Shown: positions 1,455 to 26,449 of the stretch, one piece after another
How the letters are laid out: each line of letters begins with the position of its first letter
Numbering within the stretch: the stretch's first letter is position 1
Assembly: GCA_041640035.1 (NCBI GenBank)
Contig: JBEQBC010000008.1
Location: 1-28,129, forward strand
Reading direction: 5' to 3'
Source of the DNA: Candidatus Nanohaloarchaea archaeon
GTDB taxonomy: Archaea; Nanohalarchaeota; Nanosalinia; Nanosalinales; Nanosalinaceae
Length of the DNA stretch: 28,129 nt
Position numbers and translations under genes: made by a program
The notes under the pieces: model-generated
Database searches by the model: none
What the model was told of the DNA's origin: nothing
The model's input: only the letters and a program-made list of their open reading frames with translations

Positions 1455-1472
1455 TTGCATATGAAACCAAGG
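1454..1472 (+). promoter_or_regulatory. Degenerate mini-ORB
   Basis: GTTGCATATGAAACCAAGG; 1462-1478 is a 16/17 inverted match to 1953-1969. Confidence 0.5.
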
Positions 1473-1500
1473 CTTATATACAGTACTGTGTTCAGAAATT

Positions 1501-1521
1501 CTCCACATGAAATCAGGGGGT
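1501..1521 (+). promoter_or_regulatory. ORB with G-string
   Basis: CTCCACATGAAATCAGGGGGT; 1502-1521 is identical to 1895-1914. Confidence 0.88.
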
Positions 1522-1570
1522 TGTAAACTGATTCTGGCGGATAGCAAAAACTGAAAGACGACAAGATCGA

Positions 1571-1592
1571 ACCCTGTGATTTCAAGTGGAAC
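1571..1592 (-). promoter_or_regulatory. ORB
   Basis: Reverse complement reads GTTCCACTTGAAATCACAGGGT. Confidence 0.82.
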
Positions 1593-1768
1593 TAGATAAC
1601 TGTGAGAAAGAAATAACTGATTCTAATCGAAGAACAGAAAATCTAGATCGAAATCAGCATGATTTTATTCCAGGACTGCTGTTTGCCGTAGACCGGAGGG
1701 TAAACCGGCCGGGAGTTGAGCGTCCGGTTCTAGGTCCGGATAGTTCTAGTGCGGAAATAGAGACACGC

Positions 1769-1790
1769 ACCCCCTGGTTTCGAGTGGAAC
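1769..1790 (-). promoter_or_regulatory. ORB with G-string, left flank of the DUE
   Basis: Reverse complement reads GTTCCACTCGAAACCAGGGGGT. Confidence 0.9.
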
Positions 1791-1810
1791 AGAGTTTCTG
1801 AACCGGAAAT

Positions 1811-1890
1811 CTGATTATAACAGACTTATAATTAGATAACAATGTTATAATAATATAACAGTGTTATATCATATATCTATCTATTATTTC
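1811..1890. other. AT-rich DNA unwinding element (DUE)
   Basis: 15 G/C in 80 nt (81% AT, counted by hand), between two oppositely oriented full ORBs. Confidence 0.85.
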
Positions 1891-1893
1891 GTT

Positions 1894-1920
1894 TTCCACA
1901 TGAAATCAGGGGGTGGGGGT
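1894..1920 (+). promoter_or_regulatory. ORB with extended G-string, right flank of the DUE
   Basis: TTCCACATGAAATCAGGGGGTGGGGGT. Confidence 0.9.
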
Positions 1921-1927
1921 GGTTGCC

Positions 1928-1946
1928 ACCCTGGCTTCACCTGGAA
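1928..1946 (-). promoter_or_regulatory. ORB-like box
   Basis: Reverse complement reads TTCCAGGTGAAGCCAGGGT. Confidence 0.7.
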
Positions 1947-1951
1947 TAGGA

Positions 1952-1978
1952 TTATAAACCTTGGTTTCAAGTAGAAAC
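1952..1978 (+). promoter_or_regulatory. Putative cdc6 TATA box with an abutting mini-ORB
   Basis: TTATAAA at 1952-1958, followed immediately by a minus-strand mini-ORB (GTTTCTACTTGAAACCAAGG, 1959-1978). Confidence 0.55.
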
Positions 1979-2058: not shown

Positions 2059-3240
2059 ATGTTCTCGGAATACATCGAAAAGGACTCTGTCTTCAAAAAC
2101 AAAGACGCACTTACCACTTCTTGGCGTCCAAGCAATATCCTTCACAGGGACGAACAGATCAACGATCTGGCATCAATCCTCGCACCTTCTCTCAAAGGTA
2201 ATGATCCCAGCAATGTTTTCCTATACGGTTCAGTTGGAACCGGAAAAACTTTGATAGTCAAACATGTTACCGAGGAGCTCAGAAATGTTGCAGCTGAGGA
2301 AGAGATCGATCTAAACATACTATACATTAACTGCAAGATGAAGAAGGTCGCGGACACCGAGTACAGGCTTCTAGCCAAACTAGCAAGACAGCTGGGAGAA
2401 GATGTACCCAGCACCGGTCTTCCAACCGATGAGATCTACAACCGGTTCTTCGAAGCACTAAAGGACCAGAAAGGAGTAGTAATCATCGCACTGGACGAGA
2501 TCGACGCACTGGTCAAGAAGGTAGGAGATGAGTTCCTGTACAACCTTACCAGGATTAACGATGACTTAGAGGAAACTCGCGTATCAATACTAGGAATATC
2601 CAACGACCTGAACTTCACGGAATACATGGACTCAAGAGTAAAATCCAGTCTCTCAGAGGAAGAGATAATCTTCCCACCGTACAACGCGTTAGAACTTACG
2701 GAGATCTTGAGAGAAAGAACGAAGAAAGGATTCGTAGATAATGTGCTCGGCGATGGAGTGATCAGCAAATGCTCGGCGCTCGCAGCACAGGAGCACGGCG
2801 ATGCTAGAAGAGCACTGGACCTTATCAGGGTTGCTGGAGAGCTTGCAGAGCGTACAAACGATGAAAGGATTGAGAAGGCGCATGTTGATAAGGCACAGGA
2901 CAAGATCGAGCGTGACCGTGTCGTTGAAACTGTTAGAAGCCAGCCGAAGCACTCTAAGCTTGTGCTTTACACCATCCTTGACATGACTGAGGAGGATGAG
3001 GAGATCGCGACCGGCGATGTATACAGTGAGTATAAAGAGCTTTGCAAGGATGTAGATGTATCGGAGCTGACCCAGAGAAGGGTTTCAGGACTGATATCAG
3101 AGCTGGATATGCTTGGTGTTATCAACGCCAAAGTAATCAGTAAAGGTCGTTACGGCCGTACAAGGCAGATCAGCGTCGATCTTTCCGAGGATATTCGAAA
3201 TCAGATAGAGGAGCTAGTTGAAGATAATTTTTACATCTAA
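2059..3240 (+). CDS. cdc6: Orc1/Cdc6 replication initiator (true start may be CTG at 2035)
   Basis: Walker A GSVGTGKT, Walker B ALDEID, GDARRAL sensor motif and C-terminal winged helix (SKGRYGRTR). Confidence 0.98.
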   Translation: MFSEYIEKDSVFKNKDALTTSWRPSNILHRDEQINDLASILAPSLKGNDPSNVFLYGSVGTGKTLIVKHVTEELRNVAAEEEIDLNILYINCKMKKVADTEYRLLAKLARQLGEDVPSTGLPTDEIYNRFFEALKDQKGVVIIALDEIDALVKKVGDEFLYNLTRINDDLEETRVSILGISNDLNFTEYMDSRVKSSLSEEEIIFPPYNALELTEILRERTKKGFVDNVLGDGVISKCSALAAQEHGDARRALDLIRVAGELAERTNDERIEKAHVDKAQDKIERDRVVETVRSQPKHSKLVLYTILDMTEEDEEIATGDVYSEYKELCKDVDVSELTQRRVSGLISELDMLGVINAKVISKGRYGRTRQISVDLSEDIRNQIEELVEDNFYI

Positions 3241-9248: not shown

Positions 9249-9779
9249 ATGAAAGAACAAGTTGAGATTAACGAGGTAATGACTGAAGGAGTTATAGCAG
9301 TTGAACAGGATAAAAGCATAGTTGAAGCTTCCCGTAAACTTGATGAAGAGGGTATCAGAGGTTTAGTAGTTGTTGATGACGGTGAAGCGGTAGGAGTAAT
9401 CGTCTGCAGAGATATTGTATACGAAGTAGTCGGACCTAAGAAAGAACCGGCAGATACAACAGTTGGAGAAGTAATGAGCACAGACTTGATTGTTGCTGAG
9501 GAAGATGAGTACCTTGACGATGTTGCCATGGCTATGGCGAAGAACAATATCTCTCGCGTACCTGTAGTCCGTGGGGACATGCTTGTAGGAATCCTTACAC
9601 AGAGCGATATTCTCCGTGCATGGCCTGGATTCGCAGAGATTATGGGCGAAGAGATTGAGATGAATGAAGCAGCAGTTCCGAATGTAGAGACTCAGAGTGG
9701 CGAATGTGAGAGCTGTGAGAACTACAGCGAAGAACTAATCGAGACCAACGGAATGCTTCTCTGCCCAGAGTGCCGATAA
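9249..9779 (+). CDS. CBS-pair protein with C-terminal zinc ribbon
   Basis: Two CBS repeats (GLVVVD...VGVI; RVPVV...VGILTQSD) followed by CESC-x15-CPEC. Confidence 0.9.
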   Translation: MKEQVEINEVMTEGVIAVEQDKSIVEASRKLDEEGIRGLVVVDDGEAVGVIVCRDIVYEVVGPKKEPADTTVGEVMSTDLIVAEEDEYLDDVAMAMAKNNISRVPVVRGDMLVGILTQSDILRAWPGFAEIMGEEIEMNEAAVPNVETQSGECESCENYSEELIETNGMLLCPECR

Positions 9780-9863
9780 AAGGTACTCCGCATCAATATT
9801 TCTTCCCTCATTTTTACCTGCATCCTTTTTTATCATAGATATCTAATTATCCATTTGTAGACT

Positions 9864-10310
9864 ATGGAGATAGAAGAGGAGATAACTCGCAGACGCCAAA
9901 CCATCGAACTGGACGACCCAGGACAGGCATACGCAGAACTGCGAGACCTTCTATCCACAAGAATGAGCTTCGACCATGTCTCCGAAGAAAAATACTTCAA
10001 CGATGTAGACGAAGGAGTCGTAAGAGCAAAAGTCGATACTACAGAAGCGTTCGACAGATACAGTATCGAAAAACTGACGCTCTTCATCAAAATTGACAAA
10101 CAGAAGGGAGAACTCGACTTACAGATTAAAGGACAGATAATTACAGAGTATCCAGAGGACTACAGTTATCAGAAAACACTTTGGTACTACGCGTACCGTT
10201 CACTTTTCGACAAGTTCCTTTACGGAGAGGTAAGACACGGTTACATTCCTGCAGTAGAGGAAAAAACCGATACAGTAATGCAGAGGGTTCGGGACCTCTT
10301 GGAGGCATGA
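9864..10310 (+). CDS. Hypothetical protein, paralogue A of a tandem triplet
   Basis: 148-aa acidic ORF that shares two motif blocks with the next two ORFs. Confidence 0.85.
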   Translation: MEIEEEITRRRQTIELDDPGQAYAELRDLLSTRMSFDHVSEEKYFNDVDEGVVRAKVDTTEAFDRYSIEKLTLFIKIDKQKGELDLQIKGQIITEYPEDYSYQKTLWYYAYRSLFDKFLYGEVRHGYIPAVEEKTDTVMQRVRDLLEA

Positions 10311-10316
10311 TTAGCT

Positions 10317-10937
10317 ATGACTGACTTCGAAGAACCTGTTATTGAAAAACAAGACCACTTCTTCGTGGAGGAAGACGCTGCCCGCATCTACAGAGATATC
10401 AAGGATATCTTGGAGGACGAACTTGGTATCGATAGAGTTGAGGAAGCTCGTATGGAGTTCTCAACAGCTAGCGCAAAGGACAAGATCCGTATGCATGCCT
10501 GGAAGGAGAAAAGCCGCCATACAGTAATTTACTTTAACCTTTCCTGGAGATGCAAGACACCAAGGCATATCTACCAGTCGCAGAGACAGAAAGATGTACT
10601 AAAAGCCCGTGTTAAGACTTCTGCCTCAGTGCTTACAACCTACCCGGGAGGAGAAGCCCTTCCATGGCTTCCACACAGCGTTAGAGATACTCCTGATGAA
10701 CGGCTTCCGGAGAATTATCTGAAGCCGGAGGATACATCTATGTTCCAGAACTCTAAGTTCTATGATCTCTTGACCGGTATCTGGTACCATACTTTTTACT
10801 CGAAGGAAGTCGATCGTTATGAAGAGGAGGCGGAAGAGATGGTGTTGCATCTTCATAACCTGATGAGAGAGAAGTTCGGAGTCGAGGAATCCATCACAAA
10901 ATCCGGAGCATCACAGTACACGCCACCTTGGCAGTGA
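10317..10937 (+). CDS. Hypothetical protein, paralogue B
   Basis: 206-aa ORF starting 6 nt after A; shared motif blocks. Confidence 0.85.
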   Translation: MTDFEEPVIEKQDHFFVEEDAARIYRDIKDILEDELGIDRVEEARMEFSTASAKDKIRMHAWKEKSRHTVIYFNLSWRCKTPRHIYQSQRQKDVLKARVKTSASVLTTYPGGEALPWLPHSVRDTPDERLPENYLKPEDTSMFQNSKFYDLLTGIWYHTFYSKEVDRYEEEAEEMVLHLHNLMREKFGVEESITKSGASQYTPPWQ

Positions 10938-10943
10938 TATACA

Positions 10944-11582
10944 ATGGGAGATAGACTTGACAAATTCCTCGGATGGTTCAAACGCCCTGACGGAAGCTGG
11001 GAGAAAGACGATGTATGGCATGAGTTCCCGCTTTTCCATGGTGACTGGGAAGAAATCCATAACAAGGTTGAGTGGTATGAAAGCCCTCACATAGTTGATA
11101 TCTATAAAGACCACAAGTACATCTTCAAAAACATCGATATGGATCGTCCAGTAGAAAGATACTATGAACAGTCTATAGGGGACGGAGGATTCCGTTCACA
11201 GATGGAGTCTGAGACCGAACTCCCAAGCGGATTAGGCGAAATGCGTATCCGTACCCGTCTAAGAACCAAGACTCCTCCTTCTGGAGAGAACGATTTTGGA
11301 TTGATTGAGTACTTCGTCAGGACCGATATTCAGTACGATATACCCGATGGAATCGATAACCTTCCGCGTTTCCTGGCTTACCCGCTTAACAAGTTCTTCA
11401 AGTGGGCTTACATGACTTTCATCGCTGAGGAACTGATTGAGCATGATGGAGAGTTTGCCAGAGAGAAAATGTACTCCTACCTAGACTACCTACGCGAATA
11501 CCATGGAGAGGAGCCTGTTCAGGCAAAGTCTAGGCAGACTGTTTACGAACCGACCGACGCAGAGAGAAGGTTCTTCATATAG
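10944..11582 (+). CDS. Hypothetical protein, paralogue C
   Basis: 212-aa ORF starting 6 nt after B; shared motif blocks. Confidence 0.85.
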   Translation: MGDRLDKFLGWFKRPDGSWEKDDVWHEFPLFHGDWEEIHNKVEWYESPHIVDIYKDHKYIFKNIDMDRPVERYYEQSIGDGGFRSQMESETELPSGLGEMRIRTRLRTKTPPSGENDFGLIEYFVRTDIQYDIPDGIDNLPRFLAYPLNKFFKWAYMTFIAEELIEHDGEFAREKMYSYLDYLREYHGEEPVQAKSRQTVYEPTDAERRFFI

Positions 11583-11642
11583 AAACCTATCTTTACTGCA
11601 GCCGATGTCAACAGGTAAAAAGCTAACCTGCCCTTTTTCAAT

Positions 11643-11749
11643 TATAGAGTTTTTGGCTGCCCATCATTGGAAACGGTCAGCAGGTGTGACCTCACGGGAC
11701 TACGCAGGAGATGATCACCTGTGTTACCAGGGCAGCCAAATTCTCTATA
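11643..11749. ncRNA. Candidate structured non-coding RNA (long interrupted hairpin), family not recognised
   Basis: 20-bp terminal inverted repeat (18/20 pairs) enclosing nested stems TGGAAAC/GTTACCA and CAGGTG/CACCTG, in a ~195-nt intergenic gap. Confidence 0.55.
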
Positions 11750-11778
11750 CACCAAAAATATGTGGTTGAAAACGGTTT

Positions 11779-12051
11779 ATGACAGATTTCTATGTTAAAG
11801 TAAATCCGGATTCCGGTGAACAGTCAGTTAATACTTCAAGTTCAATTACTGAAGTGAAACTCAAACAACCGGCAGAGATGGGCAGAGCTAATACAGAGCT
11901 TATCCAGTTGATGACAGAGATCCTGGGCGAGGAACCTGGCATTATTTCAGGTCATCAGAGCCGGAGAAAAAAGCTTAAGACAGATCTTCCTCAGAAGAAG
12001 GTCGACGAAAGGTTAGAAGATTATGGCGAAGATAGCACAGAAAAACAGTAA
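11779..12051 (+). CDS. DUF167 (YggU-like) protein
   Basis: VKVNP...PAEMGRANTELI...IISGHQSRRK pattern typical of the family. Confidence 0.88.
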   Translation: MTDFYVKVNPDSGEQSVNTSSSITEVKLKQPAEMGRANTELIQLMTEILGEEPGIISGHQSRRKKLKTDLPQKKVDERLEDYGEDSTEKQ

Positions 12052-13126
12052 ATACTTGGTAAAAGCACATGCAAAAGCATCAGGAGTAATAGAGAAAGCA
12101 GATGTAATCGGAGCACTTCACGGACAGACAGAAGGATTACTAGGCAACGACATGGACCTGGCCGACCTCAGAAAGAGAGGGAAGATCGGCAGGATGAACA
12201 TAGATGTCAAAACCGAAGATGGTAAATCCGAGGTTGATATCGAGATTCCTTCATCGCTTGATGCTGAGCAGACTGCCATACTGGCAGCCAGTATAGAGAC
12301 AGTTGAGAAAGTAGGACCTGTAAACGCCGATATACGGGTTGATGAGATCATAGATGTACGGAAATCCAAGAGAGACTACATCGTCAAGAGATCAAAGCAG
12401 CTTTTGGATGAAATTAAGACAGATAAACCGGATATCGACCAGATCAAGGAAGAAATACAGTACGAGGACAGAAAAGGCCGTATAGAAGATTTCAAAGGCT
12501 TCAAAGCTGGAGAGAAAGCAGAAAGCGCGGACGAAATTATACTTGTAGAGGGAGAAGCTGACCTCAAGAACCTGTTATCCGTAGGTATCAGCAACGCACT
12601 GGCTATCGGCGGAACATCAGTACCAGAGAACATCGTAGAGATATCAGATGAAAGAACCACTACGGCACTTCTCGACGGAGATAGAGGAGGAGAACTCATA
12701 CTGAAAGAGCTGAAGCAGAAGGCGGATATCGATTATCTGGCTCAAGCTCCGGAAGGCAAGGAAGTCGAAGACCTGAACGAGAAACAGTTGATGAAAACTG
12801 TTAGAGACAAGAAAAAAGTCGATGAAGACGGAGAAACAGAAGAAGACGCCGAAGAGAACTCCGAGGTCAGAGAGTACCTTAAAGAGATGATCGGAACCCG
12901 TGCAGTACATTTCCTGGACGAGGAACTTGAACCAGTGGAGAAAGCGCCGAGAGATAATTTCCAGGAAACAGCAGAGCAGTTACACGATGTATACGCGGTC
13001 GCGATTGATGGAAAAATCACGAATGACAAGATTGAACAAGCTGAGGAAATGGATGCACAATACTTTGCAGGTATGGAGCAGGATGGCAACGCTTCCAGCA
13101 GTGAACTCAGGATAATCAAGAGATAA
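12023..13126 (+). CDS. dnaG: Archaeal DnaG (TOPRIM primase-like protein)
   Basis: GVIEKADVIGALHGQTEGLLG N-terminus; TOPRIM motifs IILVEGEAD and LDGDRGG. Confidence 0.95.
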   Translation: MAKIAQKNSKYLVKAHAKASGVIEKADVIGALHGQTEGLLGNDMDLADLRKRGKIGRMNIDVKTEDGKSEVDIEIPSSLDAEQTAILAASIETVEKVGPVNADIRVDEIIDVRKSKRDYIVKRSKQLLDEIKTDKPDIDQIKEEIQYEDRKGRIEDFKGFKAGEKAESADEIILVEGEADLKNLLSVGISNALAIGGTSVPENIVEISDERTTTALLDGDRGGELILKELKQKADIDYLAQAPEGKEVEDLNEKQLMKTVRDKKKVDEDGETEEDAEENSEVREYLKEMIGTRAVHFLDEELEPVEKAPRDNFQETAEQLHDVYAVAIDGKITNDKIEQAEEMDAQYFAGMEQDGNASSSELRIIKR

Positions 13127-16513: not shown

Positions 16514-16617
16514 AATGTACTCTTTGTGTTTTGATTGGTTTATCTCTTTCTATACAATTGTTTAGAGGCGCTGTACTCGTCGAATTTTTAAATTTCGTGT
16601 TTCAGATGGTTTTGATA

Positions 16618-17682
16618 GTGGGTCAAGACCTTTCGATCGCACCAAGCGATTACGGTGATGAAATCGGTTCTGAAGTTGAAAACTATCTGGATGATATCCA
16701 CAGAGATGTCTCAAGGACTTTTGACGCCGCACTTCAGAAGCTTTCAGGCGATCTCAGAAGACAGGTCCAGGTCGGCTACCTGATGTGCCGGATACCAGAT
16801 ACGATAGAGGATTCCTCACAGCTTGACGGCGAAGAAAAATACGAACTACTCAACAGATACCGTGAAGTACTCGAGGAGCCCGATCAGAGAAATGTAGCCG
16901 AGTTCGTAAGAGACACATTATCCCGTGTAGAACCTGAAGAAGACTCAAGCTACTGGGACCTAGTGAAAAACACTCATACAGTTACAAGCAGCTTCCAGAC
17001 CTTCGATGAAGAAGTACAGGGGTACATGAAAGATGCTGTAGACGAGATGTCCAAGGGAATGGCAGATTTCTCAAGGAAAGCATACCAGAACGGGAAAGAC
17101 GGTATCAGAATACATACATTCGACGAGCTACATGAATACTGCCACTATGTAGCCGGAACAGTCGGCGAACTCCTGACAGGAGTATTTTCACACCACGAAG
17201 AAACACCAGAGGAACTATGGGATAACTACGAGGACTTCGGACAGTACCTACAAACCGTCAACATAATCAAAGACCCTGTAGAAGACCTGGAAGAAGAATC
17301 AGCAATATTCATACCAGAAGAACCACTGGAAGAAAACCTAGACCACAATGATCTGGAGCAAGCACTGCGAAACAGAAACTCAGAAGTTGTGAACCCAGCC
17401 ACGATGAGAATGCTAGAAAGAGCAGAACAGAAATCAGATGGAGCGCAAGAATACATAGAGATGATTCCGGAAGACTCCGAGATAAGAGGATACCTAGAAG
17501 TACCCTTCCTACTGGCCAAAGCAACAGGAAGAGAAGCCCGCAACAACCCCGAATCAGTTCTTGACGGCGAACTAGCAGTCGAAAAAGAAGAAGTCTTGAA
17601 CATACTTGGAGAAGCCGGAAGAAATGACTTGAACCAGATCACAGATACTATTTCAGAAAGACCTCTGCAACAAGCAGATTGA
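16618..17682 (+). CDS. Squalene/phytoene synthase family protein (squalene-synthase-type motifs)
   Basis: VSRTF, YLMCRIPDTIED, YCHYVAGTVG and LQTVNIIKD. Start uncertain: GTG 16618 fits the TTTTAAAT box at 16586-16593; ATG 16606 is the alternative. Confidence 0.88.
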   Translation: MGQDLSIAPSDYGDEIGSEVENYLDDIHRDVSRTFDAALQKLSGDLRRQVQVGYLMCRIPDTIEDSSQLDGEEKYELLNRYREVLEEPDQRNVAEFVRDTLSRVEPEEDSSYWDLVKNTHTVTSSFQTFDEEVQGYMKDAVDEMSKGMADFSRKAYQNGKDGIRIHTFDELHEYCHYVAGTVGELLTGVFSHHEETPEELWDNYEDFGQYLQTVNIIKDPVEDLEEESAIFIPEEPLEENLDHNDLEQALRNRNSEVVNPATMRMLERAEQKSDGAQEYIEMIPEDSEIRGYLEVPFLLAKATGREARNNPESVLDGELAVEKEEVLNILGEAGRNDLNQITDTISERPLQQAD

Positions 17683-17683
17683 G

Positions 17684-17758
17684 AGCCCCGTCCGGGATTT
17701 GAACCCGGGGCCTGCTCCTTACGAGGGAGCCGCTCTAGCCAGGCTGAGCCAACGAGGC
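17684..17758 (-). tRNA. tRNA-Thr (anticodon CGT), no intron, CCA not encoded
   Basis: Acceptor stem GCCTCGT/ACGGGGC, anticodon arm GCTCC-CTCGTAA-GGAGC, T arm CCGGG-TTCAAAT-CCCGG. Confidence 0.97.
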
Positions 17759-18098: not shown

Positions 18099-19055
18099 AT
18101 GAGTTCTCTGACTGACGGAGCTGAAACTATAGTAGAACAGTGTCTTAACATCGGTAAAGAAGAGGAAGTACTGGTCCTCAACGACGGAAACGACCAGGAT
18201 CTGATAGATGCCTTAACCGGTTTCCTAGAAGAAGAAGGATACAACTTCGAACTCTTGGAGTACGAGGAACCGGATAACCACGGTGAAGAACCTCCAGAAA
18301 ATGTTTCTCAAAGGATGAAGAATGTCGATGTCGTAATAGCCCCAACCATCAAATCACTTTCACATACAAAGGCAAGAGTAGAATCATGTGAAAACGGTAC
18401 TAGAGTCGCGACCCTGCCAACTATCAACAAGGAGATATGGAATACTTCTCTACAGGCAGACTACAACGAAGTAGAAAGAATTACTGCAGAAGCATACAAA
18501 TTACTGGAGGATACTTCTGAAGTAAGGATTAAGACTCCTTCAGGCACAGATCTGACCTTGAAAGTGGATATCGAGTTCTTCCATCAAGACACAGGCATAA
18601 TACACAACCCTGGTGACTTCGGTAACCTCCCAGCAGGAGAAGCAGACGGCGGAGTACTGGATGCGAACGGCGTACTTGTAACAGACCACTTCCCTTTCGC
18701 ACCTGAAGGCACCAAGGTCGAGATCCGGGACGCAGAAGCCGTATCAGTCGAACATGTAGATGAGGAAGAATCTGAACTTGCTGAAGGTTTCCAAGAGTAT
18801 GAAGGTGCACGGAATGTTGCCGAGTTCGGTTTCGGAACCAATCCAACCGCTACCTTGATCGGAAATGTTCTACAGGATGAGAAAGTGCTGGGAACGGTTC
18901 ATATCGCTTTCGGGGACAACACAAGTTACATCCCGGAAGGCCATGAAAGGCATCAGCCGTGTGAGATTCACTGGGATACGATCTGTGAGTCACCGACTGT
19001 ATGGTTTGATGACCGGAAGGTTCTGGATGAGGGCGAGCCTGTTTTCCTCGACTAG
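18099..19055 (+). CDS. Aminopeptidase, M29 (AmpS/aminopeptidase T-like) family
   Basis: GNLPAGE, AEFGFGTN, DEKVLGTVHIAFG and IHWD motifs. Confidence 0.9.
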   Translation: MSSLTDGAETIVEQCLNIGKEEEVLVLNDGNDQDLIDALTGFLEEEGYNFELLEYEEPDNHGEEPPENVSQRMKNVDVVIAPTIKSLSHTKARVESCENGTRVATLPTINKEIWNTSLQADYNEVERITAEAYKLLEDTSEVRIKTPSGTDLTLKVDIEFFHQDTGIIHNPGDFGNLPAGEADGGVLDANGVLVTDHFPFAPEGTKVEIRDAEAVSVEHVDEEESELAEGFQEYEGARNVAEFGFGTNPTATLIGNVLQDEKVLGTVHIAFGDNTSYIPEGHERHQPCEIHWDTICESPTVWFDDRKVLDEGEPVFLD

Positions 19056-19094
19056 ATTTTAAGTACTGGCTTACCCAATTTTTCCACTGTATAA

Positions 19095-20789
19095 ATGGGA
19101 ATATTTGACTCCTCGGAAGAAGTGGAAGAGAACCTTTCAGAAGCTATGGAAGAGACGAAGAAAGTTTCTAACGCCGAGGTAAAAGTAGAGAAGAAAGAAT
19201 CAGATCAGGAATGGACACACCTGATGGATGAGATACGGAACCTGAAGTCAGGGCTTAAACAGGTAAAAAGAAAGCAGGAGAAAGTAGAGAACCGTAATCA
19301 AAGAGTTGAAGACGAGCTTGACGAACTTGAAGAAGAGCTCGAGGAAATAGATAGAGATGACGAGACTGTTCAACAGGTAAGACGCCAGCTGAACGAGATA
19401 CAGTCCGAGATGCGTGAAATGGGCGGTATCGAAAGCCTTGTACAGCTGAAAGAAGATACTGAAAGCGTTCTAGATAAAGTCCGAGACATGGAGCAGGAAG
19501 TAGAGGTAGATACTGACCGTGTAGAGGATATCTACCAGGAACTTCAGGAGAAGGATGAGAAGATCCAGCAGGCTGTAAAGGATCAGGAGGAGCTGCGTGA
19601 AGACTTCGACCAGCTACTGGACCGTTTCGACAACCTCTCCATGGAGTACGATGACCTACCTTCTGCCGAAGAATTCGACCATGTTAAGGAACAATTGGAG
19701 TCTCAGAAAGAGGTAATAGATAATGTAGTACCGGCCCTGGAATCAGTATTCGACGATATCGAAGATATAGAGGAGAAATCAATCGTCACCCTGGACGAAC
19801 TTCAGGAACTTGAACAGGAGCTGGATAATACCAAGGCAGATATTTCACAGGTCAAGGAAGTCGATGAAGAAGTAGATCAGGTAAGAGAGACTACAAAAGA
19901 GAATGATAACAAGATCAAGTCTCTGAACGAGAAGATCACGCGTATAAATGATAAGACCAGAGAGATAGAGGAGCTTGAAAGCCAGATCGAAGAACTGGAG
20001 CAAGATATAGAAGAATCGAAGGAAGAGCTCCGTGAAGAAATCGATGGAGAAATACAGAACCTGAGAGAAGATTTCGACACACTTCTAGAAGACCATCCTG
20101 ATAACGAAGATCTTGAGGAAGTTGAAGAAGATCTTCACTTTGTTGTTGAGGAGCAGAAGGAGCTTGAGGAAAGCTTCGAGGAACAGATAGAGGAACTGCA
20201 GCAGAAGGTGCAGGATCTCGCGATCGAGGAGAAAGTCGATGCTTCAGAGTTCCGTCAGAGAGTACAGGAGATAAGAGGAGACCAGCTCGTAGAGCTAGGT
20301 CAGATAAGAAAAGAGATTGAACAGCTGGAAGTTGACGAAAAGATAGATTACGAGGATCTCGAGGAAGAAATGCAGGAGCTCCGTGAGGAACTCGAGCTTC
20401 AGATAAAGTATTCCCAGAACGAGCTTAGAGAAAGACATGCTACCAAGACCGAGCTCAGCGGAGTGTACGACGCACTGGAAGTGGTTCAGGACAAGATCGA
20501 GGAGGAGAAAGCTGCCAGTAATGAGAACTCCAGAGCGGTTGAAGATGTACGGAACGACCTTGAGAACCTGGAGGAAGGAATCGACTCTCGACTTTCACAT
20601 AAGGCGGAGAGAAACCAAGTTCAGGAACTGAAGAACGAAGTTGCAAGCCTTGAGAGCCGTGTAAACCAGCTGGAAGACAAGCATCAGGAAGAGTTCGTAA
20701 CTGAATCCGAGTTCCACAGCTTCAAGGAGAAGGTCGAGCAGATATCTGATCTGCTTCTGAAGGTGACGAAACGGGTTACATCCGGATAA
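19095..20789 (+). CDS. Long acidic coiled-coil protein of unknown function
   Basis: 564 aa of near-continuous heptads, with no TM segment and no Walker motifs. Confidence 0.85.
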   Translation: MGIFDSSEEVEENLSEAMEETKKVSNAEVKVEKKESDQEWTHLMDEIRNLKSGLKQVKRKQEKVENRNQRVEDELDELEEELEEIDRDDETVQQVRRQLNEIQSEMREMGGIESLVQLKEDTESVLDKVRDMEQEVEVDTDRVEDIYQELQEKDEKIQQAVKDQEELREDFDQLLDRFDNLSMEYDDLPSAEEFDHVKEQLESQKEVIDNVVPALESVFDDIEDIEEKSIVTLDELQELEQELDNTKADISQVKEVDEEVDQVRETTKENDNKIKSLNEKITRINDKTREIEELESQIEELEQDIEESKEELREEIDGEIQNLREDFDTLLEDHPDNEDLEEVEEDLHFVVEEQKELEESFEEQIEELQQKVQDLAIEEKVDASEFRQRVQEIRGDQLVELGQIRKEIEQLEVDEKIDYEDLEEEMQELREELELQIKYSQNELRERHATKTELSGVYDALEVVQDKIEEEKAASNENSRAVEDVRNDLENLEEGIDSRLSHKAERNQVQELKNEVASLESRVNQLEDKHQEEFVTESEFHSFKEKVEQISDLLLKVTKRVTSG

Positions 20790-20822
20790 TTTTTAAAACA
20801 GTTAAACCACTACTTTTGTTCT

Positions 20823-20927
20823 ATGCACAGAATGACTGAATCCACGGTTTCTACGGAAGAGTCAATGCTGTGCATGAATTTCTTCAACTCCAAGTTTATG
20901 CTTGCTAATATCTTTACCTGGAAGTAA
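20823..20927 (+). CDS. Putative leaderless uORF / leader peptide (34 aa)
   Basis: MHRMTESTVSTEESMLCMNFFNSKFMLANIFTWK*; ATG lies ~25 nt after a TTTTAAAA box (20791-20798). Confidence 0.4.
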   Translation: MHRMTESTVSTEESMLCMNFFNSKFMLANIFTWK

Positions 20928-21018
20928 TTATCCCGTTCATGCTTCCGGGGACGCCATAAAGTTCTGTTCTGGAAACGCTGTTTTTCTACGCGTTTCTGAC
21001 TCTCTGAGGTGTTCCATC
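20823..21018 (+). promoter_or_regulatory. Structured 5' leader (three hairpins plus Shine-Dalgarno)
   Basis: Stems 20823-30/20868-75, 20917-25/20941-49 and 20971-78/20990-97; GAGGTG at 21006-21011. Confidence 0.55.
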
Positions 21019-21717
21019 CTGGATATATTACCTGACTCCGGCGCCCAACGGCTCTTGTTCGTCCTCGCACTCCCACTCGTAGATGGAGTGTTCGCCACAC
21101 TACTGGTGACAGGAGCAGTACAGACATTCTCGGAGATAATGACGATAGCACTAACCGTTTTCACAGGAGCTGGAGCACTGGCCGTACTTTACTCCGAATC
21201 AGAAAGCAAAGCAGAAGCACAGAAAATGGTGAGGAAAGTAGTACCGTACCTAGTAGGAGGAACATTGCTGGTGGCGCTTGTAGCACCTGTATTCGAACAG
21301 ATATTCTATCTGACCCGTTTGAGATACGCAGCAGCCATAGCAGTCGCAGTCATCGCACTGAAAATATCGGAAGTATCTATAGCGGAGAAGTTCACTGTTC
21401 CGAGCATAATATTCACCGGTATGGCTCTATCCTTGAAACAGCCTACATCCATACAGTTAACGCTCAGCTATGTGGTTCCAGCGGTCGCAACAGTTGCAGT
21501 GGCGCTCGGAGTACTTTACATGGCGACATACATAGATCCTGAAAGACTTGATCTGGAGATAATCAGAAAAGCAGGATCTCTAGTATTGATACTGATCAGT
21601 CTATCGCTCATAGGGTTAAATGTGCCGGCAAACCTTGGTTTACTAGTTATGTCTGCCTCCATCATCGTTGCTGCACGGACTGAGGCTCAGAAGCTTGCTG
21701 TCCTGACCTCGAACTGA
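21019..21717 (+). CDS. Multi-pass membrane protein resembling haloarchaeal DUF5794; probable CTG start
   Basis: RLLFVLALPLVDGVFATLLVTGA matches my recollection of DUF5794. In-frame CTG lies 7 nt after GAGGTG, and the upstream extension to TTG 20902 does not look protein-like. Confidence 0.72.
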   Translation: MDILPDSGAQRLLFVLALPLVDGVFATLLVTGAVQTFSEIMTIALTVFTGAGALAVLYSESESKAEAQKMVRKVVPYLVGGTLLVALVAPVFEQIFYLTRLRYAAAIAVAVIALKISEVSIAEKFTVPSIIFTGMALSLKQPTSIQLTLSYVVPAVATVAVALGVLYMATYIDPERLDLEIIRKAGSLVLILISLSLIGLNVPANLGLLVMSASIIVAARTEAQKLAVLTSN

Positions 21718-22067
21718 CCGTCAATATTATTCATAAGGTAGGCTACAAGCCGTTCTCTTAAAGGCCGGAAAACGATTAGTACGCCCATGAAGTCGCTGAT
21801 GAATCCTGGTGTTAGCAGGAATACTCCTGATAGTACTATCAGTGCTCCTTCGACCATGTTTCTTGATGCTTCTCCGGCGGTTACGGATCGCTGGAGTTTC
21901 ATCAGTATGTGTATGCCTTCTCTTCTGATTAAGTGTGCGCCGATCAAACCGGTTAGAAGGACCAGTATGAACATTCTCCAGAAGCCCATGGCTCCGGCTA
22001 CCTCTACTAGAAGCCAGATATCTATCACGGGTAGTGCTAGGAGAAATACTATCAGGTATCCTATCAT
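21687..22067 (-). CDS. fxsA: FxsA family membrane protein
   Basis: LPVIDIWLL...LTGLIGAHLIRREG...LLTPGFISDFMG pattern. Confidence 0.92.
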   Translation of the reverse strand: MIGYLIVFLLALPVIDIWLLVEVAGAMGFWRMFILVLLTGLIGAHLIRREGIHILMKLQRSVTAGEASRNMVEGALIVLSGVFLLTPGFISDFMGVLIVFRPLRERLVAYLMNNIDGQFEVRTASF

Positions 22068-22127
22068 CTCTACAATAATGGTTTGAGGATGGTTATCGTT
22101 TAAAATCTGAGTATCGCTTCTTTCTAT

Positions 22128-23168
22128 ATGAAACAGCTCTTGAAAAAACTGGTTGAGACGCCTGGAGTATCAGGTAACGAACACCGCATCCGGAACACGA
22201 TCCGGGAAGAAATCGAAGAACACGCAGATACCATCGAAGAAGACAACATGGGTAACCTGATAGCAAGAAAGAACCCTGACGCAGACAAAACACTTCTTCT
22301 GGACGCACACATGGACCAGATCGGTTTAGCGGTCAGAAGAATCGATGAAGAAGGATTCATCAGGATCTCCAGCGTAGGAGGAATCTACCCGGTCTCCGTA
22401 GCCAATCAACGCGTCAATATACATACTTCTGAAGGCGAAGATATCAAAGGAGTAATCGGGATGCGACCAGCACACATCGTCCAGGGTGAAAACCGGGGAC
22501 TTCCGGATATGAACAAGATATTCGTGGATATAGGAGCAGAAGACCGAGAAGATGTCCTAGACAAAGGTATCAGAGTAGGAGACTACATAAGCTACGATAC
22601 AGACTTCGAAGAACTTGGAAACGACTATGTCACCGGACCCGCCCTCGACGACAGGGTAGGATGTGCTGTACTCATCGAAGCCTTCAAAGATTTCGATGAA
22701 AACTACGAACTGATCGCACTGTTCTCCTCACAGGAAGAAATCGGCGGAAAAGGAGTAAAGACCTCGGTATACGGCATAGAACCGGATGTAGCAGTTTCAC
22801 TTGAGGTATCACAGGCAGGAGATGTACCACACATCGATCAGGATGAATCAGACGAATTCACAGGACAGGGATTCGGCATAACCATGATTGAAGAAGGAGG
22901 CAGAGCAATCACAGTACCTGAACCGGTAAGAGACTGGCTTATCGAAACAGCAGAAGAAAACGACTACACATACAAAAGAAAACTTTACGACAGAGGAAAA
23001 ACCAACGCAGCACAGATCAGATTCCTGAAAGGCGGAATACCAGCAGGCGTAGTAGTAATACCCACAAGACACATCCACTCACCTGTTGAAACAGTCAAGC
23101 TCTCTGACATGCACGAAACCACCAGCTATGTCTCCGATATATTCTCAACATTCGGAGAACACTTCTGA
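22128..23168 (+). CDS. M42 family (TET) aminopeptidase
   Basis: PGVSGNE, AHMDQIG, LDDRVG, QEEIG and HSPVE motifs. Confidence 0.93.
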   Translation: MKQLLKKLVETPGVSGNEHRIRNTIREEIEEHADTIEEDNMGNLIARKNPDADKTLLLDAHMDQIGLAVRRIDEEGFIRISSVGGIYPVSVANQRVNIHTSEGEDIKGVIGMRPAHIVQGENRGLPDMNKIFVDIGAEDREDVLDKGIRVGDYISYDTDFEELGNDYVTGPALDDRVGCAVLIEAFKDFDENYELIALFSSQEEIGGKGVKTSVYGIEPDVAVSLEVSQAGDVPHIDQDESDEFTGQGFGITMIEEGGRAITVPEPVRDWLIETAEENDYTYKRKLYDRGKTNAAQIRFLKGGIPAGVVVIPTRHIHSPVETVKLSDMHETTSYVSDIFSTFGEHF

Positions 23169-23180
23169 GGCGATCAAAAA

Positions 23181-24950
23181 ATGGTTAAGGAAAGAAAAGA
23201 GATCGAGCAGAAATACAAATGGGATCTGACACAGGTATTCAACTCTGAAGAAGAATGGCAGAAAAAGTACGAAGAAGTAAGATCGGAGCTCGAACAGATA
23301 GAGGAACACAGAGGAAAACTTACAGACTCCGCAGAGAAACTTCTACACGGATTAAAAGCGAAAGACCAGCTAATGAGAGATATAGCAGAGCTCTCAGCCT
23401 ATGCAAGGATGAAAACGCATGAAGATATGCGCAACCAGGAAGCGCAGGAACTGAAGTCAAAGGCAGATTCTCTTCAGAGTGCAGCAGCTGCGAAAGTAGC
23501 CTTCTACCAGCCAGAAATCAAACAGCTATCCCAAGAACAGGTAGAGGAATTTATACAGCAGGAATCGGGGCTTGAAGACTACAGACAATACCTGGATAAT
23601 ATTCTGCGTATGAAGGAGCATATTCTGGATAATGAGACAGAGTCGATGCTGAATGAGCTCGGAGAGGTATTCTCCGCACCAGAAGAGACATACTCCATGT
23701 TGACGAACGCTGATCTCAGTTTCCCTGAGATAGAGCATGAACGGGAGAAGATCCAAGTGACTGCTTCCAACCTGACAAAATTACTTAAGAAAAAAGATAG
23801 GGAGCTCCGGGAAAAGGTCTACAACCAGTTCTACGGTCGTCTTGGCGAGTTCCGTAACACTATCACTACAATGATGGATAAAGAGGTTAAGAAGAATGTC
23901 AAGCTATCCAGGATCCGTGGTCATGACTCAGCACGGAAGGCATCCCTGAAAAACGATAACATCCCTGTAACCGTGTACGATAACCTTGTAGATATGGTTG
24001 AAAACAACTTGGATGTGCTTCACAGGCATATGGAGCTGAAGAGAGAGGCTCACGGATGGAACGAGATAAAGATGCATGACTTGTATATGCCGGTTACTGA
24101 GAAAGATCAGCCGGAGATTGAGTACGAGGAGGCGAAAGAACTGGTTCTTGAAGCGGTTCAGCCGCTTGGAGATGAGTATGTTGAGAGAGCTGAAGAGTTT
24201 TTTGAGAACCGCTGGATCGATGTATACGAGAACAAAGGCAAGAGAAGCGGAGCATACAGCGGAGGAACATACGATACACCTTCTTTCATCATGATGAATT
24301 ATCAGGACGATGTAAACTCCATGTACACCTTGGCACATGAACTAGGTCACTCACTGCACTCAGACATGGCGAACGAGAACCAGGGCTACCTTGACAGCCA
24401 GTACAAAATCTTTACAGCAGAGATCGCCAGCAATGTAAACGAGATACTACTAACCAATCACCTGATTGAAGAAGGAATGTACACGGAGCACGCACTGGAT
24501 TATGTCCTAGAGAACTTCAGAAACTCACTTTACCGGCAGACACTTTTCGCGGACTTCGAAAACGAAATCCATCAGCGTGTTGAAAATAACGAACCTTTGA
24601 CAGCGGACAAGCTCGGTGAGATCTACGGAGATAAAAAGAAGAGGTACTATGAACCGGTTGAGATGGATGAAGAGATTAGAAAGGAGTGGATGCGGATACC
24701 TCACTTCTACTACGATTTCTATGTGTTCCAGTACTCGACAGGGATCGCAGCAGCACATGCAATCGTCGATATGATTGAGGAAGAATCCGCTGAGAAGTAC
24801 CTTTCGATGCTGAGGAACGGAGGTAGCAAGTATCCACTAGAGCTACTTGACGATATAGGAATAGATATGCGGAAGCCGGCGAACATTGAGAAAGCGGTTA
24901 AAAGGTACAGAAACCGTGTTGAAGAAATGGAAAACAAGTTAAATGCGTGA
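23181..24950 (+). CDS. pepF: Oligoendopeptidase F (M3B)
   Basis: KWDL N-terminus, GKRSGAYS, HELGH, AEIAS and WMRIPHFY motifs. Confidence 0.95.
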   Translation: MVKERKEIEQKYKWDLTQVFNSEEEWQKKYEEVRSELEQIEEHRGKLTDSAEKLLHGLKAKDQLMRDIAELSAYARMKTHEDMRNQEAQELKSKADSLQSAAAAKVAFYQPEIKQLSQEQVEEFIQQESGLEDYRQYLDNILRMKEHILDNETESMLNELGEVFSAPEETYSMLTNADLSFPEIEHEREKIQVTASNLTKLLKKKDRELREKVYNQFYGRLGEFRNTITTMMDKEVKKNVKLSRIRGHDSARKASLKNDNIPVTVYDNLVDMVENNLDVLHRHMELKREAHGWNEIKMHDLYMPVTEKDQPEIEYEEAKELVLEAVQPLGDEYVERAEEFFENRWIDVYENKGKRSGAYSGGTYDTPSFIMMNYQDDVNSMYTLAHELGHSLHSDMANENQGYLDSQYKIFTAEIASNVNEILLTNHLIEEGMYTEHALDYVLENFRNSLYRQTLFADFENEIHQRVENNEPLTADKLGEIYGDKKKRYYEPVEMDEEIRKEWMRIPHFYYDFYVFQYSTGIAAAHAIVDMIEEESAEKYLSMLRNGGSKYPLELLDDIGIDMRKPANIEKAVKRYRNRVEEMENKLNA

Positions 24951-24958
24951 TACAAAAA

Positions 24959-26449
24959 ATGACAGATAAATTTGAACAACTAGAAGAAGAACTGAAACCT
25001 ATTCAAAACCTGCAGTACATAAGCGGACTTTTGAACTGGGATAAAGAGGTAATGATGCCTCCAGAAGGCCAGAAAGCAAGGCTTCACCAGCAGTCAACGC
25101 TCTCCAAGCTACAGCACCGACTGACTACAAGCGACAAGATTGACGACCTTCTACAGGAGATCGATGAAGACGAACTCAGCCAGAGAGACAAGGCGGTTCT
25201 CAGAGAGTTCAAGAAGGAGAAAAAGAAGGCTGACAAGGTTCCAGAGGACCTGATGGAGAAGATCTCCGAGAAATCATCTGAAACGGTCGAGATCTGGAGA
25301 GAAGACCGCGAGGAGGACAAATTCGACAGGTTCGCGGAGAACCTTCAGGAGCTGGTTGAACTGAAACGGGAGTACGCTAACCATATCGATCCGGATGCTG
25401 AGCCGTATGAAGTGCTTTTCAAGGACTTCGAACCTTTCATGAAGTTTGAGACTATGGAGGAAATTCTTGAGACTTTGAAGGAAGAACTGGTTCCGTTCAT
25501 AGAAGAGATACAGGAATCCGATGCCGATATCACCACTGATGCTTTTGAAGGTGACTTCGGACAGGAGAAGCAGGAGAAGATAAATGAAAAGATTGCACGG
25601 GATCTTGGATTCCCGGAGGAGTCTGGAAGGATCGATCAGTCCACACATCCTTTCACTTCGGGTACTACTTTTGATACAAGGATTACTACGCGTTATAATC
25701 CGAACGATATTTCGGAGAGTATCTTGCCGACTATCCACGAGACAGGTCATGCACTTTATCAGCTAGGGCTTCCTGAAGATGAGTATAACTCGCCTGTTGG
25801 TGAGGCACGGGATCTGAGTATTCATGAGTCTCAGTCTCGTCTCTGGGAGAACCATGTAGGTCGTTCGAAGGCTTACTGGCGTCACATGCTTCCGAAGGTT
25901 GAGGAGGAGTTCCCGGAGGTTGAAGGTACAAGTATTCAGGACTGCTACGAGTCCATCAATCAGGTTTACGAAGACAACATGATCCGTGTCAACTCTGATG
26001 AGCTTACTTATCATCTTCATATCGTTATCCGTTTTGAGATCGGTAGAGCGTTGATTAACGGTGATATGGAGGTGGATGAGCTTCCGGAGGTCTGGGATGA
26101 GAAGATGCAGCAGTACCTAGGTCTTTCTCCTGATAACCATAAGGAAGGTGTTATGCAGGATATCCACTGGGCTTGGGGAGAGTTCGGTTACTTCCCAACC
26201 TACTCTCTGGGAAGCGTCTTAGCAGCACAGATATTCGAATCAGCTGAAGAGGACCTCCCTGATCTTGAGGAGAAGATTGAGGAAGGAGAGTTTGAACCTC
26301 TTCTTGAGTGGCTGCGTGAGAACATCCATCAGCACGGTAAGATGTACCGTACGGAGGAACTGGTGGAGAAGGCGACAGGTCAGAAGCCGACACCGGAGCC
26401 GTTCCTAGAGTACATTAAGGAGAAGTACTCCGATCTCTACAACCTCTAA
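24959..26449 (+). CDS. Carboxypeptidase M32 (carboxypeptidase Taq family)
   Basis: HPF, HETGHALY, HESQSRLWEN, QDIHW and GYFPTY motifs. ATG 24959 preferred over GTG 24947. Confidence 0.96.
   Translation: MTDKFEQLEEELKPIQNLQYISGLLNWDKEVMMPPEGQKARLHQQSTLSKLQHRLTTSDKIDDLLQEIDEDELSQRDKAVLREFKKEKKKADKVPEDLMEKISEKSSETVEIWREDREEDKFDRFAENLQELVELKREYANHIDPDAEPYEVLFKDFEPFMKFETMEEILETLKEELVPFIEEIQESDADITTDAFEGDFGQEKQEKINEKIARDLGFPEESGRIDQSTHPFTSGTTFDTRITTRYNPNDISESILPTIHETGHALYQLGLPEDEYNSPVGEARDLSIHESQSRLWENHVGRSKAYWRHMLPKVEEEFPEVEGTSIQDCYESINQVYEDNMIRVNSDELTYHLHIVIRFEIGRALINGDMEVDELPEVWDEKMQQYLGLSPDNHKEGVMQDIHWAWGEFGYFPTYSLGSVLAAQIFESAEEDLPDLEEKIEEGEFEPLLEWLRENIHQHGKMYRTEELVEKATGQKPTPEPFLEYIKEKYSDLYNL

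Follow-up and report, generated by a model that had tools for sequence, protein, structure and literature searches.

Profile comparisons identify a conserved three-gene operon of Nanohaloarchaeota as anciently diverged paralogues of one unnamed family

The closest described counterparts of the proteins reported here are structural ones. Proteins of the Bet v1 type have seven strands and two helices in the pattern strand-helix-helix-six strands-helix, and nearly all helix-grip proteins bind or carry a hydrophobic small molecule or lipid. In hetero-complexes of the Ups1-Mdm35 type, which carry lipid between membranes, the second subunit is small, helical and of unrelated origin. The TBP-like fold class includes several nucleic-acid-binding domains; its single-domain members are not known as paralogue triplets. 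The locus that we compared with these systems comes from a Candidatus Nanohaloarchaea archaeon (GenBank assembly GCA_041640035.1, contig JBEQBC010000008.1; the 28,129 nucleotides analysed are called the window below). Nanohaloarchaeota and other DPANN archaea have genomes of about 1 Mb, and much of their conserved gene content is without assigned function. Three consecutive genes of the window, called A, B and C (Table 1), had been read by a model from the DNA letters as an operon of three deeply diverged paralogues of an unrecognised family (the original prediction). The list of open reading frames (ORFs) and the junction sequences bear out three co-oriented ORFs at these positions, with gaps of 6 nucleotides (nt) between A and B and between B and C, and every peptide block that had been quoted for the three proteins is present in the translations.

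Pairwise BLASTP gave nothing usable on the relatedness of the three proteins: the best A-B alignment was out of register (E 0.47), the best A-C alignment had an E-value of 15, and the B-C alignment (E 0.033) covered 48 residues only. Profiles were compared with hhalign, using alignments of the A, B and C families (A1 to A3) and their genome-paired versions with 35 sources each (A4 to A6). Of the 27 controls, six used alignments in reversed form, and in the other 21 the comparison was with seven unrelated families encoded nearby in these genomes; the top score of all controls was 23.0 and their longest alignment 49 columns. For A and B the family alignments gave a probability of 82% (E 1e-5, 150 columns) and the genome-paired ones 91.6% with a score of 46.9. 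The corresponding values for A and C were 53% (E 1.3e-4, 136 columns) and 17% with a score of 28.0, and for B and C 2.3% (E 0.02, 153 columns) and 1.7% with a score of 21.2. By these profile scores, the A-B similarity is secure and clearly above chance, the A-C similarity is modestly above background, and that of B and C lies within the controls. The profile alignments were collinear and in the same register as the two blocks, one N-terminal and one C-terminal, on which the original prediction had relied.

We also ranked 1796 ORFs from 36 homologous loci and the window with a hidden Markov model (HMM) of each family. The A model recovered 36 B-type ORFs (best E 9.8e-8) and the B model 35 of A type (7.8e-6); the C model recovered 36 of A type (4.3e-5) and the A model 25 of C type (0.0075). 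Between B and C the C model recovered 19 ORFs (0.0062) and the B model only two (3.3). The best unrelated ORF stood at 0.44; overall, the family HMMs placed members of the sister families above unrelated ORFs. A further link came from P0307, a non-acidic protein of 170 residues that scored 39 bits with the A model, 45 with the B model and 60 with the C model. It aligned end to end both with C (E 8e-12, 24% identity over 169 residues) and with B (E 6e-12, 26% identity over 203 residues), and matched the A profile with a probability of 90% (E 1.4e-6, 127 columns). The HMM ranking and the P0307 alignments close the triangle and thus place the three proteins in one superfamily. Taken together, these comparisons indicate that the three proteins are paralogues that diverged long ago within one unnamed family, and the old triplication seen in the original prediction is supported at the level of profiles.

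The family remained without a name in every library searched, as had been claimed. Neither Pfam (hmmscan, E up to 1) nor NCBIfam gave a match near the cut-offs for A, B or C, and PADLOC and PHROGs returned sub-threshold chance matches only (for example LARP1_HEAT at 14.5 bits for a cut-off of 27, AiiA at 11.6 for a cut-off of 375, and phrog_8359 at E 0.05). Profile searches against the PDB sequences with alignments A1, A2, A3 and A8 gave a best E-value of 0.14. None of the SRPBCC families (START, Bet_v_1, Polyketide_cyc, AHSA1, CoxG) appeared in the Pfam, NCBIfam or PDB-profile searches of the three proteins. GINS, PCNA, RPA, RNA polymerase D/L, RNase P and KEOPS subunits were considered and set aside: their folds differ, and they are absent from the Foldseek matches listed. 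An RNA_pol_L match in one distant relative (E 0.068) was insignificant. A literature search over full texts, without supplements or subscription journals, found neither a description of the family nor a START-like or lipid-transfer protein in Nanohaloarchaeota. In the available text of a report on Asgard START proteins, DPANN are present only as sampled taxa (bioRxiv 10.1101/2025.05.16.653879). Hypothetical proteins have been found to help separate DPANN from other archaea, and the same study reports having found no family set specific to DPANN (PMC8204110).

We then looked at the distribution of the three genes. Homologues made up 183 of 206 candidates for A, 44 of 129 for B and 111 of 134 for C; all those with a name were called 'hypothetical protein', and their labels were nearly all Nanohaloarchaeota, with one Aenigmatarchaeota. 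When the A alignment was used to query the genomes of GTDB, each species being represented once, 36 loci were found, all nanohaloarchaeal by content. The order A-B-C on one strand was kept in all 34 loci that hold the three positions, as well as in the window, so that the strict tandem co-conservation expected of such a system is found; the remaining two loci end at contig edges, L028 after A and L036 inside A. With starts set by HMM register, the gaps between the genes are mostly -10 to +14 nt; one A-B gap measures 130 nt, and some B-C gaps are larger where the start of C is uncertain. Neighbours are kept as well among the 37 sources (the loci plus the window, several of them truncated): the CBS-pair gene in 36, PolD DP2 in 32, DUF167 in 30 and DnaG in 26. 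One locus, L002 (JBLGBK010000014.1), is titled as a metagenome-assembled genome of Colwellia polaris; it carries the block PolD-CBS-A-B-C-DUF167-DnaG-MscS, and its A and B are 86-87% identical to those of the window. It is most likely a mis-binned contig.

Relatives also occur beyond these loci. Among 1.84 billion representative proteins the A profile found 43 at an E-value of at most 0.001, about 25 of which are non-acidic proteins of 150-183 residues with an aspartate plus glutamate content of 10-18%; P0307 was one of the 43. The ESM Atlas clusters nearest to A and to P0307 are hypothetical proteins of Aenigmatarchaeota, Nanobdellota and Woesearchaeota (scores 0.90-0.93). The distant relatives thus probably belong to non-halophilic archaea of the DPANN group, the Atlas clusters being a lead and not a test. 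As for the DPANN distribution foreseen in the original prediction, these clusters are consistent with it as a lead, and all 36 genomic loci are from Nanohaloarchaeota. Two long proteins, P0302 (967 residues) and P0308 (2978 residues), matched the part of the A profile that covers its aromatic helix only, in seven and five stretches respectively, and gave no score with the B or C model; a similar composition of repeats, and not kinship, is the probable cause. We built a quick maximum-likelihood tree (52 rows, 163 columns, LG+G4) that is unrooted and deep and hence only indicative, its support values being those of the Shimodaira-Hasegawa-like approximate likelihood ratio test only. P0307 adjoins the C clade (98), six distant sequences group with A (97), B stands alone, P0316 is unresolved and a separate clade holds 20 distant sequences (99). 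Since sequences from non-halophiles are placed by A and by C, the tree suggests that the paralogue types arose before the phylum Nanohaloarchaeota and have stayed separate since, as non-interchangeable subunits would.

Signals around the genes point to expression as a single unit. The T-rich, TATA-like box upstream of A (Table 1) is likely the archaeal promoter of the operon, which would imply a short leader or none. We compared this region among 36 sources (35 loci and the window) that all hold the start of A. An equivalent T-rich box, scored by a loose AT-hexamer pattern, is present between positions -42 and -18 in 36 of 36; a TTTTTTA(T/C) core is visible among the aligned rows, and the box stands about 25-40 nt before the ATG. 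Shine-Dalgarno-like matches of at least 5 nt, scored with an assumed anti-Shine-Dalgarno complement, precede B in 33 of the 36 sources (window -22 to -4 of the start) and C in 15, several C starts being uncertain, and precede A in none. The TATA-like box and the lack of such a match at A, together with the matches at B and often at C, thus correspond to a single-transcript architecture whose first gene would be leaderless or have a short leader and whose internal genes have putative ribosome-binding sites. Downstream, the first run of five T after the stop codon of C is a possible archaeal terminator of this transcript.

From the family alignments, AlphaFold2 modelled A with a mean predicted local distance difference test (pLDDT) of 85.4 and a predicted template modelling score (pTM) of 0.75. 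The predicted elements are a strand (2-15), a helix (19-33) and four strands (38-47, 52-62, 67-78 and 83-95), followed by a short helix (101-104) and two further helices (106-125 and 128-147). For C the mean pLDDT was 82.4 and the pTM 0.73, with pLDDT below 50 at residues 199-203 and 207-212. Its predicted core comprises a strand (36-47), a helix (50-63), strands 70-76, 83-92, 98-108 and 118-131, and one long helix (142-187), and is preceded by an aromatic-rich N-terminal extension (1-35). By homology, the core of B should match that of A; about 30 additional residues (roughly 112-142) separate its last strand (..TTYPGG) from its aromatic helix, and the protein ends in a 20-residue tail. The N-terminal block of the original prediction covers helix 1 and runs into strand 2; its C-terminal block begins where the last strand closes and takes in both the aromatic and the final helix. 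The A and C models share the element order strand-helix-four strands-helix, which is also the TBP-like order; the match is one of element order.

In Foldseek searches of the PDB with both models, helix-grip proteins topped the listing with probabilities up to 1.00: Maqu_3174, PR-10/Bet v 1 allergens, PYR/PYL, CoxG, the aromatase/cyclases ZhuI and TcmN, START domains, Ups1-Mdm35/PRELID1, the Lam4 StARkin domain, norcoclaurine synthase and hydroxynitrile lyase. The best E-values were 3.1e-4 for A and 7.5e-4 for C. The helix-grip-like fold that had been guessed from the sequence was therefore close: the helix/sheet/helix arrangement stands in the models, and the nearest solved structures are helix-grip proteins. 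Membership in that class does not follow, since the best template modelling (TM) scores are weak, 0.41 for A and 0.35 for C, with root-mean-square deviations (rmsd) mostly of 10-20 A, and the predicted sheet has five strands, not seven. Searching viral models with A gave nothing convincing (one match with E <=0.001 and a query-normalized TM-score, TMq, of 0.19); the viral structure library listing includes a DUF4468 protein, a TBP-like protein and the N-terminal domain of RnlA. We conclude that the predicted fold class is TBP-like or helix-grip-like, membership in the SRPBCC superfamily not being established.

Set beside the known systems, the trio has both likenesses and differences. Like the SRPBCC/Bet v1-like proteins that lead the Foldseek listings, A and C are predicted to be alpha+beta proteins with a curved antiparallel sheet followed by a long C-terminal helix, and they are likewise small, soluble and aromatic-rich. 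Unlike them, the models have five long strands and a single N-terminal helix, with a helical hairpin in A and one very long helix in C, and the three proteins form a fixed paralogue trio in an operon, without a sequence-profile match to that superfamily. Ups1-Mdm35/PRELID1-TRIAP1 and the Lam4 StARkin domain are structural neighbours (4xhr_A with TMq 0.40 for A; 5yqp_A with TMq 0.35, and 4ytx_B, for C); their lipid shuttling is also the sort of task that the original prediction had in mind. However, they are eukaryotic organelle proteins, and the partner of Ups1 is not a paralogue as the members of the trio are; moreover, A, B and C are predicted to be cytoplasmic, whereas capture of host lipids would be expected at the cell surface. 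Single-domain TBP-like proteins (BDI_3606, PDB 4jhy; DUF4468) have the strand-helix-four strands-helix order of one TBP-like repeat, as A and C are predicted to have. In the PDB listing for A, 4jhy gave the lowest rmsd (5.3 A over 99 columns, probability 1.00), with a TMq of only 0.35. These proteins are without the extra pair of conserved aromatic helices and have no sequence relation to A, B or C.

The mean column identity in the phylum sample was 63-67% for A, 65-67% for B and 53-55% for C, which indicates strong constraint, or purifying selection, on all three sequences. Five positions of A are conserved family-wide. When six A-type sequences were aligned with 26 distant ones, E41 and D64 proved invariant, while T94, Y120 and R124 reached 90% or more, and the invariant or near-invariant columns are all polar or aromatic. 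The D64 position is lost in both B and C according to the A-B and A-C alignments. Three arginines of A (R9, R10 and R11) are conserved within Nanohaloarchaeota and not in the distant relatives. The most conserved element of A is its aromatic helix (LWYYAYR..FDKFLYG), almost invariant and with the consecutive invariant residues W107, Y108, Y109, Y111 and R112. The hydrophobic moment of the aromatic helices is low (0.21-0.30). With consecutive invariant positions on all faces and such a low moment, a buried core or interface helix fits better than a membrane-facing one, and the membrane-surface amphipathic helix proposed in the original prediction is not supported. B and C have in addition conserved tails. 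That of B ends in Y-x-P-P-W-x, with Y201 and W205 invariant in alignment A2, and W205 invariant and Y201 at 90% or more in A5; that of C ends in F-F-x, with F210 invariant in A6 and at least 90% conserved in A3, and F211 at least 90% in both. In the C model this conserved tail is predicted with low confidence (pLDDT below 50). To judge from their sequences, the tails look like conserved aromatic, docking-like peptides. A reading of them as a PIP-box, whose pattern is Qxx-h-xx-aa, or as an HbYX motif was set aside as a poor fit to these consensus patterns.

All other properties are those of soluble proteins. The isoelectric points are 4.70 (A), 5.44 (B) and 4.91 (C), and the grand average of hydropathy is -0.69 to -0.86. 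Phenylalanine, tryptophan and tyrosine make up 12.2% of A, 11.7% of B and 16.5% of C, as against 3-10% in most ORFs of the window, the exceptions being the GT4, HAD and Na/Pi-cotransporter ORFs (10.2-12.9%). The maximal 19-residue Kyte-Doolittle mean lies between 0.18 and 0.71 for the three, compared with 2.33 for the MscS-like protein and 3.03 for the Na/Pi-cotransporter of the window, which agrees with the claim that they are without a transmembrane segment. Their N-termini are acidic and not signal-peptide-like, as had also been claimed. By these sequence measures, A, B and C are acidic, aromatic-rich, soluble cytoplasmic proteins without membrane or secretion signals.

As to the role of the trio, the reading that we put forward, at somewhat less than even chances, is that A, B and C may form a hetero-oligomer that carries a hydrophobic small molecule or lipid. 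The complex is inferred because one copy of each type is kept in a fixed order, because the aromatic helix is constrained on all its faces, because B and C have lost the D64 position and gained an insertion, an extension and tails, and because evolutionary rates covary within the trio; the ligand is suggested by analogy only. In such an assembly the aromatic helix would be a buried core or interface element. A, the minimal core of the family, would keep the ancestral polar site (E41, D64, T94, Y120 and R124), from which B and C would have diverged; these two would contribute instead the insertion, the N-terminal extension and the conserved aromatic tails resembling docking peptides. Within the cell, the particle would bind or carry its hydrophobic ligand, a small molecule or a lipid, in the manner of nearly all helix-grip proteins. 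A complex prediction for A+B+C (alignments A4, A5 and A6) gave a score of 0.20 (runs 0.10 and 0.20) for a mark of 0.32, with no controls folded, and speaks neither for nor against binding.

Several results weigh against a lipid-carrying hetero-oligomer. Taken by itself, the B-C profile similarity is not significant. The whole 12-kb neighbourhood (Cdc6, PolD DP1/DP2, CBS, A-B-C, DUF167, DnaG) is syntenic across the phylum, so that the tandem conservation of A-B-C is less specific than it looks. The rate covariation comes from an exploratory comparison of 22 genomes after removal of a proxy for species divergence (residual correlations of 0.71 for A-C, p 0.0002; 0.58 for B-C, p 0.0008; 0.40 for A-B, p 0.017; among 12 control pairs only A-CBS was comparable, with 0.46 and p 0.0002), an approach that is prone to false positives with related taxa, relies on liberal partial Mantel-type tests and used a crude species proxy. 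The AlphaFold2 inputs were shallow, with 36-37 rows and hhalign effective sequence numbers of 2.39 (A1) and 2.20 (the B alignment, A2). To this we add the weak TM-scores, and a predicted core of five strands and one N-terminal helix as compared with the seven and two of the Bet v1 type. Pfam (E up to 0.1) had no family for the 28 distant relatives, just as it had none for A, B and C. Finally, the invariant polar residues E41, D64 and R124 would suit catalysis or salt bridges just as well as the binding of a ligand.

The alternative that survives best, although we hold it to be unlikely, is that the trio serves replication, repair or RNA metabolism as a scaffold or accessory factor, in which a TBP-like saddle module would bind nucleic acid or would use the aromatic C-terminal tails of B and C to dock on a replisome- or proteasome-like machine. 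The operon lies about 8 kb from a probable replication origin and between PolD DP2 and DnaG in a conserved neighbourhood; however, it has a promoter box of its own, so that this neighbourhood does not amount to co-transcription, and the synteny of the region may reflect slow change of gene order near the origin. The TBP-like topology and the presence of 4jhy, DUF4468 and the RnlA N-terminal domain among the Foldseek matches would suit this function, but neither PDB nor Pfam links the family to any replication protein. The conservation of R9 to R11 in the A proteins of Nanohaloarchaeota counts in its favour, yet the patch is not conserved in the distant relatives; the tails of B and C also count in its favour, being disordered as well as conserved, but fit the PIP-box and HbYX patterns poorly. 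If the trio does belong functionally to the origin gene cluster, the archaeal replisome would gain a component.

It is more improbable still that the family is enzymatic, with a catalytic polar site of A (E41, D64, T94, Y120 and R124) in a helix-grip pocket and with B and C as non-catalytic partners. Polyketide cyclases, norcoclaurine synthase and hydroxynitrile lyase are enzymes of the Bet v1 class, and ZhuI, TcmN and the latter two were among the Foldseek matches; the conservation of the five positions and the loss of that of D64 in B and C also speak for this reading. Buried salt bridges or interface contacts explain the conserved positions equally well, however, no sequence match to any enzyme family was obtained with Pfam, NCBIfam or PDB profiles, and the neighbourhood holds no obvious substrate pathway. 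We give a similarly small chance to three proteins acting separately, with different specificities and a shared operon for co-regulation only: most SRPBCC proteins work as monomers or homodimers, the A and C monomers are each predicted to fold confidently alone and the distant relatives fall into several separate clades, but every complete locus keeps one copy per type, closely spaced and always in the order A-B-C, the aromatic helix has consecutive invariant residues on all its sides, and rates covary within the trio.

If the trio is a lipid-carrying hetero-oligomer, a more far-reaching version can be formulated, which we regard as a long shot: A-B-C would be the nanohaloarchaeal form of a DPANN-wide multi-paralogue lipid-chaperone particle made of minimal helix-grip domains, which would distribute host-derived lipids or hydrophobic building blocks, with a head-group site in A and with B and C tails docking to uptake or membrane-insertion machinery. 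Such a chaperone, if real, would allow membranes in cells unable to synthesise their own lipids, and a particle handling host lipids would bear on membrane building in lipid-auxotrophic DPANN. Whatever the function, a three-gene operon found at the same place in every complete locus and without a Pfam or NCBIfam name is a tractable dark-matter target. Profile comparison places the three proteins in one superfamily, with a predicted fold class from which predictions on cavity, ligand and heteromer follow. Expression of non-halophilic relatives, among them P0307 and the P0290-P0318 group, should be less difficult than that of the acidic proteins of the halophiles.

Table 1. Positions of the A-B-C operon and of other features in the window.
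Feature	Position	Strand	Remarks
Gene A	9864..10310	+	ORF, 148 aa; minimal core of the family
Gene B	10317..10937	+	ORF, 206 aa
Gene C	10944..11582	+	ORF, 212 aa
TATA-like box, T-rich (CCTTTTTTATCA)	9824..9835	+	About 30-40 nt upstream of the A ATG
Shine-Dalgarno-like GGAGG for B	10301..10305	+	Inside the 3' end of A
Shine-Dalgarno-like GTGAT for C	10934..10938	+	Weaker; overlaps the B stop codon
First run of five T after the C stop	11634..11638	+	Seen in sequence, window only
CBS-pair protein	9249-9779	+	C-terminal CxxC...CxxC zinc-ribbon-like end; directly upstream of A in 36/37 sources
Small structured RNA (predicted)	11655-11741	+	Between C and DUF167
88-aa ORF	11503-11769	+	Shares its first part with C and spans all of the small RNA
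DUF167 (YggU-like)	11779-12051	+	Overlaps DnaG by 29 nt
Toprim/DnaG-like gene	12023-13126	+	Downstream of DUF167
Probable replication origin region	1462-1969		Upstream of Orc1/Cdc6 (2059-3240)
Squalene/phytoene synthase family gene	16531-17682	+	E 3e-45
tRNA	17684-17758	-	
Four metallopeptidase genes (M29, M42, M3, M32)	18099-26449	+	Run after the squalene/phytoene synthase gene

In the window, the order is probable origin repeats, Orc1/Cdc6, PolD DP1, a HAD hydrolase, PolD DP2, CBS, A, B and C, and then the small RNA, DUF167, DnaG and MscS. The region upstream of Orc1/Cdc6 is, from its repeats, a probable replication origin, followed by the genes for Cdc6, PolD DP1 and DP2. A 23-nt repeat of the TTCCACATGAAATCAGGGGGT type occurs there in direct orientation at 1499-1521 and 1892-1914 and inverted at 1763-1789, with an AT-rich stretch at 1809-1856 and outer inverted repeats at 1462-1478 and 1953-1969; the repeats resemble archaeal origin recognition boxes. 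The CBS-pair protein encoded just before A could be a regulator or a fourth partner of the trio, yet A has a promoter box of its own.

The small RNA between C and DUF167 was not recognised by Rfam. Its motif pattern is found in 23 of 36 sources, that is in 22 loci (for example L012:2375-2460 and L024:7859-7955) and the window, and 19 of them were folded. In the predicted structure, a closing stem of 8 bp and an upper stem of 7 bp flank an internal loop of about 7+7 nt, and the apical hairpin is variable; six of the 15 predicted pairs, from both stems, stay paired although both of their bases have changed. A K-turn could arise from UGA and GAUGA elements, and the stem is followed by an A-N-A triplet at a distance of 15 nt from the loop top. 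With these features the RNA matches archaeal H/ACA pseudouridylation guides and is a candidate for one. The 88-residue ORF that covers it is most likely not a gene. Further downstream, in most loci that hold both genes, DnaG starts about 210-310 nt after the start of DUF167.

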